From an uncultured Candidatus Saccharibacteria bacterium (GTDB lineage: Bacteria; Bacteroidota; Bacteroidia; B-17B0; Aurantibacillaceae), in the NCBI GenBank assembly GCA_963763345.1, contig CAVXOV010000014.1:5317-69316 (forward strand): DNA of 64,000 nt, given 5' to 3'. Shown here piece by piece: positions 4,722 through 58,710 of the stretch. The notes beneath the pieces are model-generated. The model made no database searches. It was given only the letters and a program-made list of their open reading frames with translations, and had not been told where the DNA came from. Made by a program: the position numbers and the translations under genes. Each line of letters opens with the position of its first letter. Position 1 is the stretch's first letter.

Positions 4722-5939
4722 ATGTTTAGCCTACAGGAAGTTTTTCCTGAAACCGATAAACCATTGCGAAAGGCTATGGTGGCTTTGTTGGTGTTGGTAG
4801 CTTTTTCATTACCCTTTAAATTTCTGGTAAACCTTTTTATTGTACTGGCGTTTGTGGTGTGGTTGTTTAGCAACCCTTTTAAGAGGCTGTTTACAAAGAC
4901 TAAGAACATAGGTATATTTCTGGCTATTTTTATTTTCTATTTACTTCATTTAATAGGACTATTATACACCAACAATATACATGAAGGTTTATTTAGTCTG
5001 GAAATGAAAGTAAGTATGCTCATCTTTCCGTTGTTGTTTTATACGGAAGTGTTTTCTGCCAAGCAATACCGGTTTTTCTTGAAGAGTTTTGTGGTTGGAA
5101 CGCTGTTATGCTGTTTGCTTTGTTTAAGCAGGGCTATACTCCTTTACTTCTCTGCTCATGAAAATAACTTTTACTACGAAGGGTTATCCTGGTTTCAGCA
5201 CCCCTCTTACTTAGCGATGTATATTAGCTTTTGCTGTGCGGTTCTTTTACTAACTAATGTATTTAGTAAAACAATCACTTATGTAAGTATTGTATTCTTT
5301 ACTTTGTTTGTATTCTTGCTTTCATCTAAAACGGGTATCATCATTCATTTTATAACCCTTGTGTTTTCTTTTGTTTCCATCTTCCTTAAAGGGAAGAACT
5401 ATTTTAAGGTTATAGGAGCATCTTTACTTGGGTTATTGGTTTGTGTAGGTATTCTGTTTCTTATTCCGCAGGTAAAACAACGCTTTCAGAACGCTTATAG
5501 TGTGTTTCAGGCAAAGCGCATAGATAAGACATCGGCCGAAAGCACAACCGTGCGTATGCTGATTTGGAATGAAGCGATGCAGATTAGTAAAGAACACCCT
5601 TTGTTAGGGATTAGTCCAGGAGATACTAATGATGCTTTGTATGAAGGTTACCAAAGAGATAGGTTAACGGGAGCATACAGTAAGAAGTTGAATGCGCATA
5701 GTCAGTATTTTCAAACAACCATTGGGCTTGGCTTGGTTGGTTTAGTGAGCCTCTTGTCTTTATTTGCATTGCCTTTATTTACCAACAGAAATAAGATGGT
5801 GGTATTCTTTATAGGGATAACAGCCTTAAATTTTTTAACCGAAAGTATGTTTCAAACTATGGCTGGATGTATTTTTTTCGGCTATTTTTACAGCTTAATT
5901 TGTTTTCAACATGATTCCCTTCTCACCACCTCGGATTGA
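4722..5939 (+). CDS. O-antigen ligase family protein
   Basis: Multi-TM; LSSKTG, R..IW, HPLLG, NAHSQY Wzy_C-like motifs. Confidence 0.85.
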   Translation: MFSLQEVFPETDKPLRKAMVALLVLVAFSLPFKFLVNLFIVLAFVVWLFSNPFKRLFTKTKNIGIFLAIFIFYLLHLIGLLYTNNIHEGLFSLEMKVSMLIFPLLFYTEVFSAKQYRFFLKSFVVGTLLCCLLCLSRAILLYFSAHENNFYYEGLSWFQHPSYLAMYISFCCAVLLLTNVFSKTITYVSIVFFTLFVFLLSSKTGIIIHFITLVFSFVSIFLKGKNYFKVIGASLLGLLVCVGILFLIPQVKQRFQNAYSVFQAKRIDKTSAESTTVRMLIWNEAMQISKEHPLLGISPGDTNDALYEGYQRDRLTGAYSKKLNAHSQYFQTTIGLGLVGLVSLLSLFALPLFTNRNKMVVFFIGITALNFLTESMFQTMAGCIFFGYFYSLICFQHDSLLTTSD

Positions 5940-9281: not shown

Positions 9282-9905
9282 ATGGAAAACCCCAAAGAAG
9301 ATTCTCATTTTTCTGCCAATGCGCTTAAAGATTTTGAATTAGTAGAGCGTGCTTTGAAGCATAACGACCAAAAGGCCTATACAGAGCTGATGAAGCGTTA
9401 TAAGCATTTGGTTTACTACATGCTGCTGGGGTTGATGAATAACAATAAGGATGATGCCGACGACCTTACCATGGAAACTTTTGAAAAGGCATTTAAATAT
9501 TTAAATCAGTTCTCTACATCATCGGCATTTAGTACCTGGTTATTTAAAATAGCAGCTAATAATGCTATAGATTTTATACGGCATAATAAAACGCATGAGG
9601 CTACTTTATCTTTGGATAAACCCTTTGAGAATACAGGCCAAGAAGACCTTTCGTTTTTTGTAAAAGCTGCCGAGTTGAACCCCGAAGAAAGCGTTATCAG
9701 AAAACAAAATATTTACAACATACGCAGTATAATGGAAGAATTAAAGCCAAATTACAGAGAGATTGTGGAGTTGTTTTTTATAGAAGAACTATCCAGCGAA
9801 GAAATTGCGACACACTTGGGTTTACCTTTAAGTACCGTAAAAACAAGGCTTAGCCGAGCCCGGGATTTTATTATTGCGGTTGTTAGGCATAACGACAAAC
9901 TTTAG
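9282..9905 (+). CDS. ECF sigma-70 factor (SigW/RpoE-like)
   Basis: DADDLTMETFEKAF, FSTWLFKIAAN, EIA..LGLPLSTVKTRLSRAR. Confidence 0.93.
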   Translation: MENPKEDSHFSANALKDFELVERALKHNDQKAYTELMKRYKHLVYYMLLGLMNNNKDDADDLTMETFEKAFKYLNQFSTSSAFSTWLFKIAANNAIDFIRHNKTHEATLSLDKPFENTGQEDLSFFVKAAELNPEESVIRKQNIYNIRSIMEELKPNYREIVELFFIEELSSEEIATHLGLPLSTVKTRLSRARDFIIAVVRHNDKL

Positions 9906-10045
9906 AATTTATCCCTTTCCTTCATTCACTAAAACCCGCAAAGAGAAATAGCTGTAGTCCCAATAATATAAGCTTTTCCCTGTAATAGCAAAGGAAAAGA
10001 TACCAACGGCTGTTAATAAATGATAGGCTGTTTTTTCATCTTTTT

Positions 10046-10071
10046 TGAAACTTTTTTAAAGTTTCTCCGTT
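10046..10071 (+). promoter_or_regulatory. Putative ECF (SigW/SigM-type) promoter TGAAAC-N16-CGTT
   Basis: tgaaac-ttttttaaagtttctc-cgtt, with a T-tract after -35; lies between the ECF gene and ORF 10332. Confidence 0.55.
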
Positions 10072-10331
10072 AAAGCTTTTAATTGATACTTATTAAAAGA
10101 AAGGAATTAACGCATGATAAAACGTCTCACGTACGGGGATACAAAAATACAGTCTTAGGTGTAAAATAAACAACCATAGAGCATATCCAAGCAGCGTACA
10201 AAACCCAAAAACCTGATACTAAGATTCCTTTTACGGGTAAAAGCATTCTTACAAGTAGTTTCTTATTGGTTCTTCTCACTATACCGGAATGAATCTCAAC
10301 ACGGAGTATTAACCAGAAAATCCTAAATAAC

Positions 10332-11018
10332 ATGAGCACAACAACTCTAACCGAGAAGGCGGTTATAAAAATGCCTTCTAAATGGGGCGACAGGGTGCTG
10401 CGTGTGCAGAACATTCAGACGAAGCTGACAACTAATACGTACTTCGCTACCGGATGGACAGCTGGCACGCTAACCCAAGCTCAATTTAATGCTGATGTTA
10501 CCACGTTTTTAACCGAAGCAGCAAATGCCGAAGCCCGCATCGCAGGGGCAGTTAGCTTACGCAATGCAGCGTTTAAAACCGTAAAACAGGATTTGAGTTA
10601 TGTAGAGTCGATGGTGCAAACCAAAGCCGATGCTAACCCAACTATTGCGGTAACCATTATAGAGAGTGCAGGATTATTTGTATACGTTAGGCACGGAAAT
10701 GGAAAAAGAATAAACGCCGCCTATAATACACAAATACCCGGCAAGGTTATAATGACAGCAGATGGTGGTGGGCAAACTGAATGGGAAATGAGTAAGGATA
10801 TGATTGCAATCATAAACTTACCGGCTACAAGCACTTCTAAAACAAGCGTTAGCGGTTTAACAGCCAACGACGTTTGGTACTTTAGAAGCAAAAAAGTAGA
10901 TACCCTTAAGAAAACCTACAACTGGAGTCCGTGGTTTATGCTTAAAATTGGGCCCGGCGGGCGCAATTTAGGCGGAGGCGGAACACATAGCACAGCAGGT
11001 ACTTTACCTACTGCATAA
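10332..11018 (+). CDS. Hypothetical protein, helical N-terminus + C-terminal FN3-like domain, no signal peptide
   Basis: C-terminal EWEMS...TSVSGLTANDVWYFR...NWSPW matches an FN3 pattern; N-terminal amphipathic helices (...RNAAF..VKQDL..VQTKAD..IIESAG). Confidence 0.75.
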   Translation: MSTTTLTEKAVIKMPSKWGDRVLRVQNIQTKLTTNTYFATGWTAGTLTQAQFNADVTTFLTEAANAEARIAGAVSLRNAAFKTVKQDLSYVESMVQTKADANPTIAVTIIESAGLFVYVRHGNGKRINAAYNTQIPGKVIMTADGGGQTEWEMSKDMIAIINLPATSTSKTSVSGLTANDVWYFRSKKVDTLKKTYNWSPWFMLKIGPGGRNLGGGGTHSTAGTLPTA

Positions 11019-11044
11019 GAGTCGTCAACTCTTTATCTACAACT

Positions 11045-11071
11045 AAGGGCATCCCTGACAAGGATGCCCTT
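11045..11071 (+). terminator. Hairpin/terminator after FN3-like gene
   Basis: aagggcatcc-ctgacaa-ggatgccctt, perfect 10-bp stem; weak U-tract. Confidence 0.6.
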
Positions 11072-11090
11072 GTTGCGTTTACCCGGTTCG

Positions 11091-11505
11091 GTTTTTTAGA
11101 CATAAATAGCGGCTATTTCTAAAGGAACCGCGGTTTGTTTCGAAGGAACCGCGGTTTGTTTCAAAGTAACCGCGGTTTGTTTCAAAGTAACCACGGTTTG
11201 TTTCAAAGTAACCGCGGTTTGTCTCGAAGTAACCACGGTTTGTCTCGAAGTAACCGCGGTTTGTTTCGAAGTAACAACGGTTTGTTTCAAAATAACCGCG
11301 GTTTGTTTCAAAGTAACCGCGGTTTGTTTCAAAGTAACCGCGGTTTGTTTCAAAGTAACCGCGGTTTGTTTCAAAATAACCGCGGTTTGTTTCAAAGGAA
11401 CCGCGGTTTGTTTCAAAGTAACCGCGGTTTGTTTCAAATTAACCACGGTTTGTTTCGAAGTAGCCGCGGTTTGTTGCAAAATAGCCGCTATGTATGCAAA
11501 AAAAC
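11091..11505. repeat. 21-bp tandem array (17 full units, 11121-11477) bracketed by ~28-bp inverted repeats
   Basis: Consensus AAAGTAACCGCGGTTTGTTTC; IRs at 11091-11118 and 11479-11505. Confidence 0.95.
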
Positions 11506-11603
11506 AGCTTGATTGCTTTTAGAAAGGAGAAGGTTTGGGGTGGGGGAGGTAGAGTTTATGAAGGAAAATTCATAATTTCTATTTAATGTTATATTTGTTA
11601 ATT

Positions 11604-14161
11604 ATGAAAACTAAGATTTTATTCCTTCTCATCGTCATTGCGGGCATAGCGAAGCAATCTTTTAGTCAAAATGGCAATTATTTTATTGATAATTATACCC
11701 CAGCCATGTATGGGGCGGGTGAGCAAAACTGGAATATTCTACAAGATAGTTTAGGGAGGTTATTTGTAGCAAATAATGATGCCCTTATGATGTATGATGG
11801 TAAGTATTGGAAAATAATTGGGGTGGAAAGGGTGGTATAGTCTCAGCGGTTTCAAAAACTCAAAAGGGACTTATACTTGTTGGCAGTGATGGAGGTTTTG
11901 GTTACCTAAATTTTATGTTTGATGGAAAAATCAAATATGTTTCTTTATCCTCAAAATTGCCAAAAAAAGAAGCTGAGTTTGGGAGAGTATGGGCAATACA
12001 AGTTATAAATGATAATTATTTCTTTTGTGCAAATGATAAAATATTATGGTATAAAGACACGAATTTTGTTGAAAGCTTTAAACCAGTCGGTGTAAAATTT
12101 CATACTTTCCTTACGGTAGGAAACACATTATTAGTAAGGGAGACAAGGGGTTGGTTTTGTTTATTTTAAAAATGGCAAACTAAATAAAATTACAAATTCA
12201 GATGAATTTGCAACGTAAAAGTATATTCAGTTTTGCCTTTTAAAGAAAATTTATACTGGGTTTGTTCAAGAAAGGGAACATATATTTTAAACTTTAACGA
12301 TAAGTCCCCTGAGTTAAGCTCATTACAAAAATGAATACACCAGCTACAGATAAATGGATGACTGAAAATAATATTTATTGTGGTGCCAAAATTAATGATA
12401 AACAATATGCATTAGGCTCTATAAAAGGGGGGCTATTAATGGTGGATAGTACTTTTAGCCCAGTGAGTTATATTAATGTAAGTGAAAATGATTTAAAAGT
12501 AGATGGAACTTCAGTATTATACATCTATGTTGATTATGCGGGGGGTATGTGGTTAACATTAAATAAAGGTCTTAGCCATGTACAAATAAATATCCATTTT
12601 CAATTGGGACTTTACAAATGGTATTAGAGGCACTATTGAATCCGTTGCAAAGGCAAACGGAACTTTATATATAGCAACTGATAAGGGGGTTGATAAGCTG
12701 GATAAAAAAACAAATAGTTTTATTCCAACAAATATTAAGGAAATGAGTTGGGATTTAATTCCATATAATAATGTGTTACTTGCGGCAACCAAAACATCTG
12801 TTTATGAATTAAATGAAAAAACAGAGCAGAAAATATTTGACTCGCCTGATGGAGCCTTTAAAATATTTATAAATCCAACTAACAAAGAGAACTTGTTTAT
12901 TGCAGGCGAATATTCTTTGCAGTTAGTCAAATATAAAGACCATAAGATGACTACTGTTAAGGAATATGATTATGCAAAAGGTATAAGAAGTATGGTGTCT
13001 GATTCAAAAGGTATAGTTTTTTTTGGTGGAGATGAATATGTTTATATGTTCAATTCAAAACAACCAGATACTTTAACCACATTTACTAAAAAAGATGGAA
13101 TAGATACTACATCTGCAAACTTTGTTTTTATTTATAATAATGAAATTCTTGTTGGCGGTATGGGAGGTATCTATAGTTTCCGTGAAAAAGATAAACCATC
13201 TTTTATCAAACAACCTAAGTATAATATAATTAAAGAAAACATTTTTATTCAAAGGGCTGAACAAGTTAAAAATGATATTTGGTCGTCAGGCTATATCATA
13301 TCTAATAATTCGCCTAATGAAAATGAAGATGAAGATGGAATTTGTATTTTAAAACAAACACCATCTGGTTTTATAAAAGAAAATAAGCAATTCCGGCAAA
13401 TTGAAGGATTAAAGGCACATTGCATAATAGATGATTCTAATAAAGTTTATATTGGGACTAATGACGGACTTATAGCTTATGACCTAAATTATAAAACCAA
13501 AGATTATCCATTTTATACTTTCATATCGAAAATTGTTCAAAAGGCTGACACAAATATTGTAATTGAAAATTACTTTAATGGATTAAACTGTCCTCCCCCT
13601 GAATTATTATATAAAAATCATGAACTAAATATATACGTATCAGCTTCTGATTATACTAATAAGAATGAATTAGAGTTTTCATACTACTTAGAAGGAGTTG
13701 AAACTGATTATTGTAAATACACAAAGGATAGTAAAATAAGCTATAGTAATTTAATTAATCTTTATGAGGGGAATTATACCCTTCATGTAAAGAGTAGAAA
13801 TATGTTGGGAATAGAAGGAAAGCCGGTTAGTTTTCCTTTTACAATTTTGCCACCTTGGTATCGTACAAAGTTAGCTTATGCCTCCTATTTTCTATGCTTA
13901 GTTTTCCTAATTATAGTTATAGTAAGATTGAACACTAAAAGATTAAAAGAGCAGAATATTAAACTCGAAAAGATTATAGCAGAACGTACCGCTGAAGTCG
14001 TTTTACAAAAAAATGAAGCTGAAAAACAAAAAGGATTAGTAGAAGAAAAACATAAAGAAGTAATGGATAGTATTAAATATGCAAAGAGAATACAGACTGC
14101 TTTAATTACTAACGAAAAGTATATAAACAATGCTTTGAATAGATTAATGAAGAAGGATTAG
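11604..14161 (+). CDS. Periplasmic beta-propeller + Y_Y_Y sensor protein with TM and coiled coil; multiple frameshifts
   Basis: Fragments 11586-11840, 11807-12169, 12331-12627 and 12743-14161 join into one protein; Y_Y_Y domain (FSYYLEG..YSNL..GNYTLHV), ILPPWY, TM, DSIKYAKRIQ. Confidence 0.75.
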
Positions 14162-14172
14162 CTATTTTGTTT

Positions 14173-14216
14173 TGCGTTAGAGATTGAAGCAAACTGCACT
14201 GCAGCGCGTAAAGCCT
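14173..14216 (+). repeat. Degenerate copy of GCGTTAGGGATTG REP-like element
   Basis: tgcgttagagattgaagc...gcgtaaagcct. Confidence 0.4.
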
Positions 14217-55745: not shown

Positions 55746-55864
55746 TGTCATTTCGAGCGAAGTCGAGAAATCTTTGGGCGTTCCGGCGGTTACGCCGGCG
55801 GGCTTTGCACTACAATCTTTTGCTCGTGCCTCACAAAAGGATTTTCGTTGCAATCCCTAACGCA
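55746..55864 (-). repeat. REP/MITE-like palindromic element, copy A
   Basis: Reverse complement begins tgcgttagggattgcaacgaaaatcctttt; adjacent module tgtcatttcgagcgaagtcgagaaatct. Confidence 0.8.
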
Positions 55865-55889
55865 AATTAAAATACCTCTTAATACTAAA

Positions 55890-56750
55890 TTATTGACTAA
55901 CCCATTTTGCTGGTCTATTTATAAAATGCCCGCAAACAACACAATCCCATGCTTCCTCTTCTGTGGCACTTGAGTGTATAGCGGTCATTGAATGAAGTGT
56001 ACAGTTAGGGCATTGTTTTGTTTTACCCTTATATTTAGAATGAATTTCAGCAACCCATTTAATATCTTCTTCATGCCCACAAAAGGTACACTTAATAGTA
56101 TTCTTGTCTTGAATTATAGAAACATCTTGTAAACAACTTTGACATTCAGAGAAATAGAAAGTTTTAGGTTTATCAGATATTTTGTATTTTTCTTTTAAAG
56201 TAACAACCCGAGTACTTACATAATTTTTTACATCCTTAAGGATATTATCAATCTCCTTTGTTCTATCCTTATCCTCAAAAAACTCAGTGAAAATGTAGCT
56301 TCGGTAAAATTCAATATAAATATCAAGACCAATTGAAATTAATGAAATAAGTTCGTCACTTTTAGTTTCGAAATGGAAATGAGCAATTTTATTCCTTATT
56401 TTTCTAATTGTTTCGATGTTTTTCTTTGTTTTATCTGGAAACTTAATGGACGAAATACTTTCAATTCTTTCTAAACAACAATCAAAATTTACACTTTTTA
56501 ATTCTCCATTAAGTAACGTGGTTTTGTTTGCTTTTTTTTGGTTCTGAAATAGTTGAGTCCAGTCAATAGAAGCAATTTTACATTTTAAGAGCAGTTCTAC
56601 ACTTGTTGCTATTGCAATTAGGTCTGCTTTTAAAGTTTTGTCATCTACACGAGAGTATAATGTTCCGTCAAAATTCTTTAACCTATCAATAGCTGGAAAT
56701 AATAAGTCAAAAGAATTATTAAGAATATCTGAGGAAACCCTTTTGTTCAT
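55890..56750 (-). CDS. HEPN-like protein with C-terminal Zn ribbons
   Basis: VELLLK helix, RNKIAH (RX4H), four CxxC pairs. Confidence 0.7.
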   Translation of the reverse strand: MNKRVSSDILNNSFDLLFPAIDRLKNFDGTLYSRVDDKTLKADLIAIATSVELLLKCKIASIDWTQLFQNQKKANKTTLLNGELKSVNFDCCLERIESISSIKFPDKTKKNIETIRKIRNKIAHFHFETKSDELISLISIGLDIYIEFYRSYIFTEFFEDKDRTKEIDNILKDVKNYVSTRVVTLKEKYKISDKPKTFYFSECQSCLQDVSIIQDKNTIKCTFCGHEEDIKWVAEIHSKYKGKTKQCPNCTLHSMTAIHSSATEEEAWDCVVCGHFINRPAKWVSQ

Positions 56751-56770
56751 TACCTATTATTTTCATTAAA

Positions 56771-57376
56771 TTAATCAACACTTTTTATTACCTTAATAAA
56801 GATTTGGATATTATAAGGAATTTCTTCTCCTGTAAAATTTTTAGTTGTCCCATGATAATAATCAATAAATTCTTTTAGAATATCAATTTTAATTTCTTGA
56901 ATTACATACTGTTTGTTTCTATAATACATTGGTCCGCCCACCTTAAAATGACAAAGTATTGTTTCATCTGGAAACTCCTTATTTATTTCCTTTATATCTG
57001 AAGCGTCAAATATGTAATCTTTTTCATCTTCATCTCTTATTGAAAGGCGAGGATAGCTTAGTATTTTTGAAGTATTAACTTTCTTAACTAGTTTAAAATT
57101 ACCGTCATTATCAGAGGAGAAAGGATTTGCTGGCTCATTCTTATTTATTATACCATAAATAATAACAGAGCATATGGTTAGGAATATTATTGAATATAAA
57201 TGTGGATGTGCTGAATCACCATAAGTGTAAAGAATAAGATAACTGATTAGATATAGTGTACTATAAGTAAAAACTTTGCCTTTATTATCTTTGAAAAATG
57301 CATTACCCAACCATATAAATGGAATACTTAATAATACATAAAAAGCAAATTCATATATAGCTTGGTGTGAATTCAT
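56771..57376 (-). CDS. Hypothetical membrane protein (3 N-terminal TM)
   Basis: 201-aa AT-rich ORF. Confidence 0.65.
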   Translation of the reverse strand: MNSHQAIYEFAFYVLLSIPFIWLGNAFFKDNKGKVFTYSTLYLISYLILYTYGDSAHPHLYSIIFLTICSVIIYGIINKNEPANPFSSDNDGNFKLVKKVNTSKILSYPRLSIRDEDEKDYIFDASDIKEINKEFPDETILCHFKVGGPMYYRNKQYVIQEIKIDILKEFIDYYHGTTKNFTGEEIPYNIQIFIKVIKSVD

Positions 57377-57481: not shown

Positions 57482-58213
57482 CTAAGTAATAATCACAATT
57501 ATGATGCTACTCTTTGGGCCATCTAAGGCTTCGTTGGTTTTGTGTTTCCAATAAAAACTCATGGCTACGCGTTTGCCAATTGTGTTTAATGCTAAATGCA
57601 AGGTGTGGTTTGCTTTGGTAGAAGTGGTTGCCGTAGTTAATAAATCAGGTGTAGCAGGTATAGCATCTGTTTGGTTTAGTATTAAATAATCTATCCCTAA
57701 ATGGTATCCGGCTAATAAATGAGCACGCTTGCTGCTTTTATCGGCGCGGGCTTCGTAGTGTAAACTTGCACCGCCAACACCTTTGGCAATAATCCACACT
57801 TGGTTAATAGTAGCTACATGTCTTTCAGTTAGTACGCCGCTACCAACTACAGGGCTGTTGTGTTTAATATTAAACATAATAAAATAGTTAATATTAGTAA
57901 CGGTTGGCGAGCCTGCCGCAATGCGGTCTAACACGTGGTTTGTTTTATCATACGCACGAGCAGCTTTAATAATGGCATGTATTGCCTTTGTGTTTACAGG
58001 GTTGCCACGCGGGTTGGCACTATATATAGTATATAGTGGTGTTATTTGCGCGAGGAAGGCTTGCCATGCAGCAAGTTCTGCCGGTAGCCAGTTAAGACGC
58101 TGCCAGTTTAGGTTAGTAAACGGAGCAGGACTGTTTAAAATTAGATACGCACAAGTTGATTGCATAAAAGCAAAAAACTTTACAATTGGTTGAGGAACAC
58201 GTTCTGTTGCCAT
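57482..58213 (-). CDS. Hypothetical protein, helical N-terminus + C-terminal Ig/FN3-like domain, no signal peptide
   Basis: ...P..PDLL....STKA.H.L.....GKRV.M...W....GPKS.I C-terminal beta-sandwich pattern; A-rich leader; own terminator. Confidence 0.7.
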   Translation of the reverse strand: MATERVPQPIVKFFAFMQSTCAYLILNSPAPFTNLNWQRLNWLPAELAAWQAFLAQITPLYTIYSANPRGNPVNTKAIHAIIKAARAYDKTNHVLDRIAAGSPTVTNINYFIMFNIKHNSPVVGSGVLTERHVATINQVWIIAKGVGGASLHYEARADKSSKRAHLLAGYHLGIDYLILNQTDAIPATPDLLTTATTSTKANHTLHLALNTIGKRVAMSFYWKHKTNEALDGPKSSIIIVIIT

Positions 58214-58338: not shown

Positions 58339-58569
58339 CCTGAAAGTTTGCAGATGTACATCCAATAGTTGTGGATGTGCATTGAATACTTTGCGATGAA
58401 GCTTGAAGACTTCTGGATGAACATCGAAGACTTTTAAATGCGAGCTTGAAAACTTGGGATAAACATTGAAAACTTCTGAATGTAGCTTGAACACTTGCAG
58501 ATGTACATGGAATACTTTTGGATGTAGCTTGAAGTGTTTTAGAGCAAGCTTGAAAAGCTTTAGATGATG
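58339..58569. repeat. Degenerate 21-bp tandem array (11 units)
   Basis: Consensus (C/A)TTGAANACTTNNNGATG(T/A)A(C/G); units 21 nt except one 22 and one 20. Confidence 0.85.
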
Positions 58570-58587
58570 CTTTTAAACAGTATGGGC

Positions 58588-58710
58588 TGCGTTAGGGATT
58601 GCAACGAAAATCCTTTTAGTAATCTAAAAGATTGAAGTGCAAAGCCCGACGGCGCGCTTAGATTTCTCACATTCGTTCGAAATGACACAGCGCGCGCCGG
58701 AACGCCCAAA
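58588..58710 (+). repeat. REP/MITE-like palindromic element, copy B (inverted relative to copy A)
   Basis: First 30 nt identical to reverse complement of 55835-55864; agatttctc..cgaaatgaca module nested inside. Confidence 0.8.

Follow-up and report, generated by a model that had tools for sequence, protein, structure and literature searches.

Two families of small proteins, here F1 and F2, are encoded beside tandem DNA arrays of 21-bp period far more often than chance allows, and this pairing is conserved across paralogues, species, and several families of Bacteroidia. Both families were encountered in a single stretch of 64,000 nucleotides (the window) from a 2.8 Mb MAG. Adjacency, conservation, phyletic co-occurrence, a locked period, and arrays that are non-coding and placed on the promoter side of genes are the observed traits of the association. 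They point to a protein-plus-repeat system that has not been described before; the mechanism offered for it below is inferential. Full-text searches found no published account of a 21-bp repeat/FN3 pairing in Bacteroidota.

Two loci and their proteins

The window carries one locus of each family, with the following features.

9282-9905: ECF sigma-factor gene (Sigma70_r2/r4)
10332-11018, plus strand: F1-family gene P0001, 228 aa (open reading frame and translation)
11028-11115, plus strand: leader between the F1 stop codon and array 1, with a terminator hairpin and the left inverted end
11044-11072, plus strand: intrinsic-terminator hairpin in the leader (dG -21.5 kcal/mol, z -4.55)
about 11091-11118: left inverted end of array 1, ~24-28 bp, within the leader
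11116-11488, no strand assigned: array 1 (TRF: 17.7 x 21 bp, 91% matches)
11479-11505, no strand assigned: tail, the right inverted end of array 1 and reverse complement of the left end
14166-14215, minus strand: Flavo-1-like element (nhmmer match at C14:19482-19531, E 1e-10), directly after the gene or genes following array 1
55792-55872, minus strand: Flavo-1 element (RF01705; cmscan 46.8 bits, gathering score 42)
57482-58213, minus strand: F2-family gene P0002, 243 aa, with predicted helical N-terminal and FN3-like C-terminal domains and its own terminator
58347-58572, no strand assigned: array 2, degenerate, period 21/42 bp (TRF, 63-73% matches)
58571-58655, plus strand: Flavo-1 element (RF01705; cmscan 49.3 bits, gathering score 42), abutting array 2

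At the first locus, the 228-aa gene, hairpin, and 21-bp array of the original prediction are present in that order (TRF, 17.7 copies). The interval it outlined, 9282-11520, also takes in the ECF sigma-factor gene, a separate gene that is not a conserved neighbor of the module at the relatives' loci inspected. At the second locus, both the gene and a degenerate array are real, but the array lies upstream, 134 bp from the start codon of P0002, and not downstream. The claim that these are the only two such arrays and proteins holds within the window and fails for the genome, which has 104 intergenic arrays and about 34 F genes. The arrays were rightly set apart from CRISPR, because their contiguous 21-bp units have no spacers; no Cas families occur near either locus or at the relatives' loci.

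P0001 consists of a helical N-domain, an FN3-like C-domain, and a conserved disordered Gly-rich tail, and inspection of the translation revealed no hydrophobic N-terminal signal. Its AlphaFold2 model (pLDDT 82) places helices at residues 18-112 and seven strands at 129-205, followed by the disordered Gly tail; that of P0002 (pLDDT 80) has helices at 10-92 and strands at 140-241. Residues 126-209 of P0001 superpose on the FN3 domain 3f7q_A (VIA Z 10.2, rmsd 2.5 A, 81 residues), Foldseek matches P0002 to integrin beta4 FN3 (E 3.8e-4), and FN3 matches overall lie at E about 4e-4. In these predicted models the C-terminal domain of both proteins has the FN3 fold, a beta-sandwich of seven strands that can be superposed on FN3 domains of known structure. 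The shared helical-plus-FN3 architecture first guessed from the translations thus recurs in the models of both proteins, whose folds are not unrelated.

Neither protein matches Pfam fn3 itself or any other family in Pfam, NCBIfam, PHROGs, or PADLOC; PDB sequence searches were empty, and family and structure searches found no nuclease, transposase, or recombinase fold or motif. Neither has a recognized DNA-binding domain, and to our knowledge FN3 folds are not known as DNA binders in bacteria. LytTR domains, with direct-repeat operators spaced at 21 bp, gave no Pfam match, and the listed structure matches are all FN3, with other folds possible at lower ranks. Sequence homology between F1 and F2 was not detectable by BLASTP or hhalign (A1 against A2, iterated local profiles, and A1 against the 96-sequence A3; E at least 0.25 throughout). 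One N-terminal motif aligned weakly in two of the F1-F2 profile comparisons, which is a hint only. Both families are basic, with a median pI of 9.87 for F1 and 9.47 for F2 against 8.2 genome-wide.

None of the 99 homologues of P0001 bears a name, and no fused or longer form of P0001 was found, although this is weak evidence. P0002 has 27 close homologues, and F2 comprises 297 clusters at 50% identity in a representative library. F paralogues are 30-55% identical to one another, and their orthologues persist in different species together with their own arrays; F pseudogenes and fragments also occur.

The consensus unit of array 1, TTTCAAAGTAACCGCGGTTTG, includes the 10-bp perfect palindrome AACCGCGGTT. 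Its unit family recurs at G000:C61:94038-94305 and C61:105642-106056 (genome pattern search and shared-11-mer clustering). Contig C61 has three more arrays of this family that keep the leader, and the tails align across three arrays, so that leader, tail, and inverted ends are common to 3-4 loci, all of this one family. One solo array of the family retains a relic of an F1 3' end. At orthologous loci the leader is conserved to about 11100, the proteins are 76-79% identical, and the array units have an identity of 0.52-0.62 to the array 1 unit, which is near random. The module sits in differing gene contexts in close relatives, with nucleotide homology beginning only 23 bp before the ATG. Metatranscriptome contigs (Logan, two studies) cover the P0001 gene over 10205-11041, as evidence of presence only, and stop short of array 1; since repeats assemble poorly, this gap is uninformative on transcription of the array.

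At the second locus, the Flavo-1 element at 55792-55872 lies 18 bp past the stop codon of a DUF3644/HEPN-like gene and ends a minus-strand unit that runs from array 2 through the F2 gene and a TM gene to the HEPN-like gene. Flavo-1-like elements are enriched close to arrays (nhmmer).

Pairing of genes and arrays within and across genomes

In the host genome, an array adjoins 28 of the 33 F genes in the gene set, mostly downstream for F1 and mostly upstream for F2. After iteration, a 21n-period array lies within 450 bp of 12/16 F1 ORFs and 16/18 F2 ORFs, against 231/3416 background ORFs. The enrichment holds on each side: F genes make up 14 of the 56 genes with an array just downstream versus 19 of 2324 elsewhere (Fisher p 2e-15), and 14 of the 117 with an array upstream versus 19 of 2263 elsewhere (p 8e-11). 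The judgment that the pairing is no accident of two loci is supported. Among F2-superfamily paralogues the array is upstream in 12 of 18 and downstream in 4 more, and in nine closest-set paralogues of the 12 the upstream array ends ~40-80 bp before the ATG. Most F1 genes end in their own terminator before the array; in the F2 cluster-29 branch, the array begins 1-2 bp past the stop codon and no terminator intervenes.

About 70% of the arrays have no F gene nearby. Ordinary housekeeping genes flank them, with T9SS cargo over-represented among the neighbors. The simple rule of one F gene per array family was discarded, since an F-adjacent member is found in 10 of the 20 multi-locus families, no more than chance. 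Hidden further families (F3/F4) beside the remaining arrays did not emerge either: of ten array-adjacent ORFs of ~200-250 aa, eight encode ordinary enzymes or membrane proteins, and the other two matched nothing significantly. A conserved partner gene was likewise rejected, an XRE HTH gene directly preceding only 2 of the ~34 F genes.

Array adjacency is also enriched among the homologues of both families in other genomes, a result in line with the original prediction. Among close F1 relatives it is seen in 18 of 23 (15 downstream, 3 upstream), with only two further 21-bp arrays in 285 kb of their flanks. Of the distant F1 relatives, found in other families, about 20/28 adjoin an array, and F2 relatives elsewhere have one upstream in 23/27. 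Across 401 genomes of the class, F1 is present in 21, F2 in 17, and both in 12, against 0.9 expected. All five F-positive genomes sampled contain arrays, at 40, 60, 40, 17, and 7-14 per Mb, whereas no 21/42-bp arrays were found in three F-negative genomes (400, 218, and 191 kb), two of which belong to genera that also have F-positive members. The distribution of F genes is patchy, all-or-none, and multi-copy, with 4 of 25 members positive within one genus, and array copy number can change between otherwise identical strains, by exactly 63 bp. Many F genes are found at contig ends.

Array properties and candidate mechanisms

The best lag is 21, 42, or 63 in 103 of the 104 arrays. A 7-nt sub-period of the STRR/TAACTGA or omega-heptad type is absent from them, and lags 10-11 show a slight dip. 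By shared 11-mers the arrays form 70 unit families, 50 of them singletons and some present at several loci. In three orthologous pairs the unit consensus is conserved (identity 0.90-0.95) above the level of four-fold sites (0.61-0.79). Dyads are enriched, with stems of at least 5 in 35/104 units versus 12.6 expected. Spacers holding arrays are divergent in 42 cases, co-directional in 50, and convergent in only 6, against 356, 1565, and 365 genome-wide. Strand asymmetry relative to flanking genes is absent (AT skew 0.03, GC skew 0.07), and intrinsic curvature, estimated approximately, does not exceed that of column-permuted arrays (10.5-bp roll harmonic, mean z 0.06).

Our leading, if tentative, explanation is that the arrays serve as phased docking sites for F1 and F2 proteins, which from there influence neighboring promoters. 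The proteins would be small, basic, and cytoplasmic, with DNA arrays of a strict 21-bp period, or two helical turns, as their targets; each would assemble in phase as a multimer on the array next to its gene, and also in trans on other arrays with the same unit. Nearly all arrays occupy spacers that bear promoters, so the resulting complex of protein and DNA would modulate whichever promoter or promoters lie beside it. For F2 the target would be its own promoter. The terminator between gene and array means that autoregulation cannot explain the F1 layout, and here the target would be the gene downstream of the array; solo arrays would serve other genes, T9SS cargo prominent among them. DNA binding, specificity, multimerization, and any regulatory outcome are what we infer from these patterns.

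A role at the DNA level fits arrays that are non-coding, strand-symmetric, and depleted from convergent spacers. The adjacency in this genome and elsewhere, the phyletic link, the locked period with free sequence, the constraint on units, the enriched dyads, and the basic character of the proteins also count in its favor. Against docking stand the want of a recognized DNA-binding domain in either protein, the ~70% of arrays that are solo and sit by housekeeping genes, the chance-level occurrence of F-adjacent array families, and the near-random identity of the array 1 unit to that of orthologues with 76-79% identical protein. Each protein may work with its own array, as first proposed; that idea must accommodate the solo arrays, the multi-locus array families, and the turnover of the array 1 unit relative to orthologues. 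A bolder form of the docking model is possible but doubtful: dozens of helical-plus-FN3 paralogues per genome would each recognize and polymerize on a private, strict 21-bp array, a new DNA-binding architecture in which ~100 phased nucleoprotein platforms govern the expression of accessory and surface (T9SS-cargo) genes or promote their spread, with concerted evolution of protein-array pairs and a patchy occurrence in Bacteroidia.

The patchy, all-or-none, multi-copy distribution and the pseudogenized copies also fit a selfish element. On this account, which we consider unlikely on balance while giving it serious weight, the arrays would be REP/RAYT- or BrickBuilt-like dispersed, recombinogenic minisatellites with leader and tail ends, which F proteins create, spread, or maintain, or on which they ride as addicted passengers; effects on neighboring genes would be a by-product. 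F genes are nearly always array-flanked, most arrays are F-less, and sampled F-negative genomes have none. The patchiness within a genus, the pseudogenes and fragments, the shifting module contexts with homology starting just before the ATG, the conserved leader, tail, and inverted ends of the array-1 family with its relic-bearing solo copy, and the 63-bp strain difference all point the same way, and BrickBuilt is a precedent in Bacteroidota for a minisatellite-bearing MITE near T9SS-cargo genes (PMC4596501). The F proteins, however, lack a nuclease, transposase, or recombinase fold or motif; their paralogues are old (30-55% identity) and their orthologues keep their own arrays, unlike recent transposition bursts; and 70 unit families are not one dispersed sequence. 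A functionless by-product is improbable: a peculiarity of replication or repair, or a co-inherited factor other than F, would make 21-bp slippage arrays in long spacers, where F genes would lie as accessory genes. The wide differences among unit sequences, the array-flanked housekeeping genes, and the approximate curvature estimate would suit it, yet it leaves unexplained the 85-90% adjacency and the family-specific side across distant families, the exclusive 21-bp period, the unit conservation above four-fold sites, and the depletion from convergent spacers.

Less probable still is action at the RNA level, with arrays transcribed as repetitive structured RNA (5'/3' UTR or sRNA) that is bound by the neighboring protein or acts alone. 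Array 1 folds stably, with a z of about -5 on either strand alike, the cluster-29 branch of F2 places its array directly past the stop codon with no terminator, some arrays are abutted by Flavo-1 motifs, and BrickBuilt elements have promoter activity (PMC4596501). Even so, the structured-RNA option of the original prediction gained no support: strand asymmetry is absent, most F1 genes terminate ahead of the array, and palindromic units fold equally on both strands, as dyad-symmetric DNA sites would. The suggestion that 21 nt encodes seven-codon (heptad) peptide repeats is close to refuted and fails as a general rule. Array 1 is open in one frame per strand (125 and 127 codons), and gene callers annotate such ORFs, but 28 of the 104 arrays are closed in every frame, open frames average 1.68 per array as compared with 1.40 after column permutation, and coding gives no reason for repeats of 21 nt only and never 18, 24, or 27.

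Known repeat systems and wider implications

The nearest analogue is BrickBuilt, a minisatellite-containing MITE of Porphyromonas gingivalis with a 23-nt unit, a single sequence family, 19 copies, and no associated protein family (Klein et al. 2015, PMC4596501); a mobile-promoter role has been suggested for it, and promoter activity is present (PMC4596501). The likenesses to BrickBuilt (PMC4596501) are a home in Bacteroidota, spacerless tandem units in intergenic positions (here 104/114 long arrays), leader and tail flanks with small inverted ends (here in the array-1 family only), strain-variable copy number, and adjacent T9SS (PorSS CTD) cargo genes. The arrays described here differ in their strict 21-bp period, in ~70 unrelated unit families per genome, and in two dedicated protein families.

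RAYT genes, too, are nearly always repeat-flanked, with most REPs lying away from the gene in RAYT-carrying genomes. RAYTs are HUH/Y1 transposases, REPs are single palindromes or doublets, and paralogues go with differing repeats. The F system resembles REP/RAYT (REPINs) in that its genes are array-flanked, most arrays lie elsewhere, paralogues are accompanied by differing repeats, and arrays occur only in carrier genomes among those sampled; it departs from them in proteins without a catalytic fold and in repeats that form long head-to-tail arrays. Mycobacterial MIRUs, which are intercistronic minisatellites of 40-100 bp, carry short ORFs overlapping flanking stop and start codons and behave as VNTRs. 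Intergenic tandem units between co-directional genes and variable copy number are shared with them, unlike the terminators between F1 stop and array, the 28 arrays of 104 that have no open frame, and the linked protein family.

Plasmid ParR-parC (R1/pSK41), SopB-sopC (F), and the omega heptads (pSM19035) place phased tandem repeats, often dyads, beside the gene for the binding protein. parC lies upstream and sopC downstream of the gene for the polymerizing protein, and upstream arrays double as autoregulatory operators. Such centromere and iteron systems are present in a single copy and work with a partner NTPase or Rep protein, and their DNA-binding proteins are of the RHH or HTH type. The helical phasing, the dyads, and the position up- or downstream of the adjoining gene are shared with the F arrays; ~30 chromosomal modules with no partner gene and FN3-fold proteins of putative binding are not. 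No ParA/ParM/TubZ or Rep partner was found among the neighbors of F genes in the window and at six relatives' loci. A centromere role, one of the options first raised, is unlikely because there are ~30 modules per chromosome and no ParA/ParM-like gene among the neighbors inspected.

In lineages that carry it, the system takes up about 1% of the genome. If F proteins bind the arrays, they would constitute a new FN3-based class of bacterial DNA-binding protein, and the arrays a new organization of promoter regions, in which phased repeats of private sequence share a universal two-turn period. Should protein and array prove instead to form a selfish pair, they would represent a new counterpart of REP/RAYT with no recognizable transposase. 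The system might also explain why T9SS-cargo genes tend to lie near minisatellites in the phylum, as they do with BrickBuilt. A large set of "hypothetical" Bacteroidota genes would be explained, and assembly breaks would be accounted for, because many F genes are at contig ends. The same would be true of the spurious ORFs that gene callers annotate across such arrays.

Protein–array pairs at the two loci

Each of the two loci in the window proved to carry a protein gene and a 21-bp-period tandem array where the original prediction had placed them.

Features of locus 1 and locus 2 (window positions)
9282-9905, + strand: ECF sigma-factor gene (Sigma70_r2/r4_2 domains), followed by a 425-bp spacer to the P0001 gene
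10332-11018, + strand: P0001 gene, 228 codons, F1 superfamily
11044-11072, + strand: strong hairpin 3' of the P0001 gene (dG -21.5 kcal/mol, z -4.55)
11116-11488: array 1, 17.7 copies of a 21-bp unit (91% matches)
57482-58213, minus strand: P0002 gene, 243 aa, F2 superfamily
58347-58572: array 2, degenerate, 21/42-bp period, 134 bp upstream of the P0002 start codon

The interval 9282-11520, proposed as one candidate system, does contain gene, hairpin and array, with the sigma-factor gene a separate neighbour. Both genes abut an array as claimed, but the side differs (downstream at locus 1, upstream at locus 2). Every array-1 unit contains the perfect palindrome AACCGCGGTT, and the array is bracketed by inverted sequence of about 24-28 bp.

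Neither P0001 nor P0002 has a family match in Pfam, PHROG, NCBIfam or PADLOC, and sequence search against solved chains gave no match. Confident AlphaFold2 models built with family alignments place four helices at residues 18-112 and seven strands at 129-205 of P0001 (pLDDT 82), followed by a Gly-rich tail that is conserved though disordered, and helices at 10-92 and strands at 140-241 of P0002 (pLDDT 80). Both C-terminal halves are predicted FN3 sandwiches (Foldseek to FN3, E about 4e-4 for each; structure match of the P0001 half, Z 10.2, rmsd 2.5 Å over 81 residues). The helical+FN3 architecture is thus common to the two superfamilies, and both are basic (median pI 9.87 for F1 and 9.47 for F2, vs 8.2 genome-wide); profile-profile comparisons gave no significant homology between them, even with a 96-sequence F2 profile. 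Small XRE-type HTH genes (C44:26670-26936 and C61:11540-11776 of the host genome) end 15-17 bp before two F1 paralogues, and of the roughly 34 F genes there only these 2 have such a neighbour; in L081/L082, an unannotated 252-aa protein follows an HTH_3 gene.

Pairing and co-occurrence across genomes

The host genome, a 2.8-Mb MAG (75% complete) in which the window is C14:5317-69316, holds 171 loci of 21n period by TRF. A length of 120 bp or more is reached by 114, and 104 of those are intergenic, with a median of 246 bp and a total of about 1.2% of the genome; all but one of the 104 match themselves best at a lag of 21, 42 or 63. Iterated profile searches of its ORFs recovered 16 F1 and 18 F2 genes. 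Arrays lie within 450 bp of 12 of the 16 F1 genes (10 downstream, 2 upstream), a thirteenth running into one, and equally close to 16 of the 18 F2 genes (upstream of 12, directly downstream of 4). By comparison, 231/3416 ORFs are near an array (enrichment p 1e-10 to 1e-15), so the pairing is more than a coincidence of the window.

Seven other MAGs supplied 23 F1 relatives. A 21/42-bp array follows 15 of them at no more than 300 bp and precedes another 3 at about 315-375 bp, while the 285 kb of flanking sequence contains just two 21-bp arrays besides these. About 20 of 28 distant F1 homologues from a 401-genome class sample adjoin a 21/42/63-bp array, and 23 of 27 F2 relatives have one upstream. 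With arrays beside most relatives (18/23, about 20/28 and 23/27), the homologue comparison named beforehand leaves the pairing unrefuted. The closest F1 orthologue (protein 92% identical; JGI metagenome contig L048:6687-6870) lacks the array: its stop codon is followed by 25 bp of shared sequence and then the same-orientation 3' end of a T9SS C-terminal sorting domain. Either the locus was joined by deletion to the last part of a cargo gene lying downstream, or the assembly was wrongly joined at the repeat.

Of the 401 class genomes, 21 carry F1, 17 carry F2 and 12 carry both (0.9 expected by chance), though these 12 stand for only about five lineages. In the eight genomes compared for array density, arrays go with F genes, and the F-negative genomes G406 and G021 are congeners of the F-positive G212 and G145.

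Density of 21n arrays of at least 120 bp, by genome
G000 (host), F-positive: 40 per Mb
G212, F-positive: 60 per Mb
G145, F-positive: 40 per Mb
G262, F-positive: 17 per Mb
G007, F1 only: 7-14 per Mb
G366, F-negative: none in 400 kb
G406, F-negative: none in 218 kb
G021, F-negative: zero 21/42-bp arrays in 191 kb

One genus is divided: 4 of its 25 genomes have 6-16 F1 copies each, the other 21 none. Searches of the 12 genomes in the family to which the MAG is assigned, among them the single same-genus genome (99% complete), gave no F1 or F2, and the closest homologues belong to a different family (f8/g12). Horizontal acquisition of the system is one explanation; the other is that the taxonomic placement of this 75% complete MAG, or the purity of its bin, is in doubt.

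Array evolution, placement and possible roles

The arrays are not coding: 28 of 104 have no open frame, and open frames are barely more frequent than in column-permuted controls. No 7-nt sub-structure and no meaningful strand asymmetry was found in them. Their units are rich in dyad symmetry, with stems of at least 5 in 35 vs 12.6 expected. They sort into about 70 unrelated unit families. Their spacers are divergent in 42 cases, co-directional in 50 and convergent in only 6 (genome-wide 356, 1565 and 365), so nearly all precede one gene or more; the median distance to the start codon is 141 bp. T9SS cargo is three-fold enriched among the downstream genes (16/117 vs 105/2263, p 2e-4). For about 70% of arrays there is no F gene in the vicinity, and the neighbours are ordinary genes (e.g., those for a DEAD helicase, DHQ synthase and enoyl-CoA hydratase).

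Unit consensus sequences are better conserved in three orthologous pairs (0.90-0.95) than four-fold sites of the adjacent gene (0.61-0.79); the array-1 unit, by contrast, has turned over relative to orthologues whose proteins are 76-79% identical. Concerted evolution is suggested by the edge units of array 1, which are similar to the unit found in the array of an orthologue. Between L083 and L084, contigs from two samples (4808-5149), otherwise identical sequence differs in array length by exactly 63 bp, that is, three units or one higher-order repeat; gene callers annotate this array as ORFs of 92 and 113 aa. Close P0001 orthologues sit in wholly different gene neighbourhoods, with nucleotide homology beginning only 23 bp before the ATG. 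Three further loci on C61 share the array-1 unit family and its hairpin-containing leader and tail; one retains a relic of an F1 3' end, so solo arrays can arise from F–array modules.

The most economical reading, which we hold tentatively, is that F proteins act on the arrays as DNA, assembling as phased multimers on a two-turn lattice, with arrays beside promoters serving as putative docking platforms. Such binding would account for the side on which each family has its array, for a period of 21 bp only despite free sequence, and for the dyad enrichment, unit conservation among orthologues, promoter-side placement and the phyletic link of arrays and F genes. Taken alone, it leaves unexplained the abundance of solo arrays and the patchy, multi-copy, pseudogene-bearing distribution, both of which fit a selfish repeat–protein system that works as REP/RAYT does, or a mobile minisatellite of the BrickBuilt kind; we judge this alternative rather unlikely, and it hinges, as docking does, on putative F-protein binding to arrays. 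Less likely than either is that the arrays are a by-product; an RNA role ranks lower still, and heptad peptides lowest. The original prediction is confirmed as an observation; its interpretation is partly supported, in the pairing and shared architecture, and its heptad-coding option is not borne out.

Among published elements the one that comes nearest is P. gingivalis BrickBuilt, whose 23-nt bricks are intergenic, flanked by leader and tail, neighboured by T9SS cargo and active as promoters (PMC4596501); it differs in being one sequence family without an associated protein. Iteron and centromere systems share the layout of an array adjoining the gene of its binder but differ in their partner NTPase and the binder's fold. 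CRISPR and MIRU were rejected, their defining features being absent. We found no paper describing an FN3 protein/21-bp array pairing, and the system appears undescribed.

Neighbouring genes and Flavo-1 elements

Array 1 is followed by a gene for a signal-peptide-bearing sensor with a propeller/Y_Y_Y domain (11586-14161, + strand), which is split into at least four successive ORFs (11586-11840, 11807-12169, 12331-12627 and 12743-14161) and is thus either frameshifted or a pseudogene. Its homologue at C61:35172-36632 is likewise preceded by an array, which shared 11-mers place in a cluster with array 1. The unit containing P0002 continues downstream with a 3-TM protein and a DUF3644/HEPN-like protein that has Zn-ribbon motifs (55890-57376, minus strand), and genes following other F1 arrays include those for a DUF6932 protein and a 1036-aa protein; some arrays therefore adjoin accessory or possibly defence-related genes. 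Elsewhere in the window, a SAM riboswitch (RF00162, 51819-51937, + strand, 71 bits) lies upstream of a 1253-aa metH-like gene.

Locus 2 is surrounded by "inverted 120-bp elements" that are in fact Flavo-1 motifs (RF01705), to which the literature assigns no function (PMC2864571, PMC9723704).

Flavo-1 elements in the window
58571-58655, + strand: Flavo-1 (RF01705)
55792-55872, minus strand: Flavo-1 (RF01705)
14166-14215: Flavo-1-like element

Searching the genome with a local profile gave 41 Flavo-1-like elements. For 20 of them an array lies no more than 1.5 kb away (5.2 expected), and for 7 no more than 100 bp away (0.9 expected). The elements often lie 15-25 bp past the stop codon of the post-array gene, giving the order array, gene or genes, Flavo-1.
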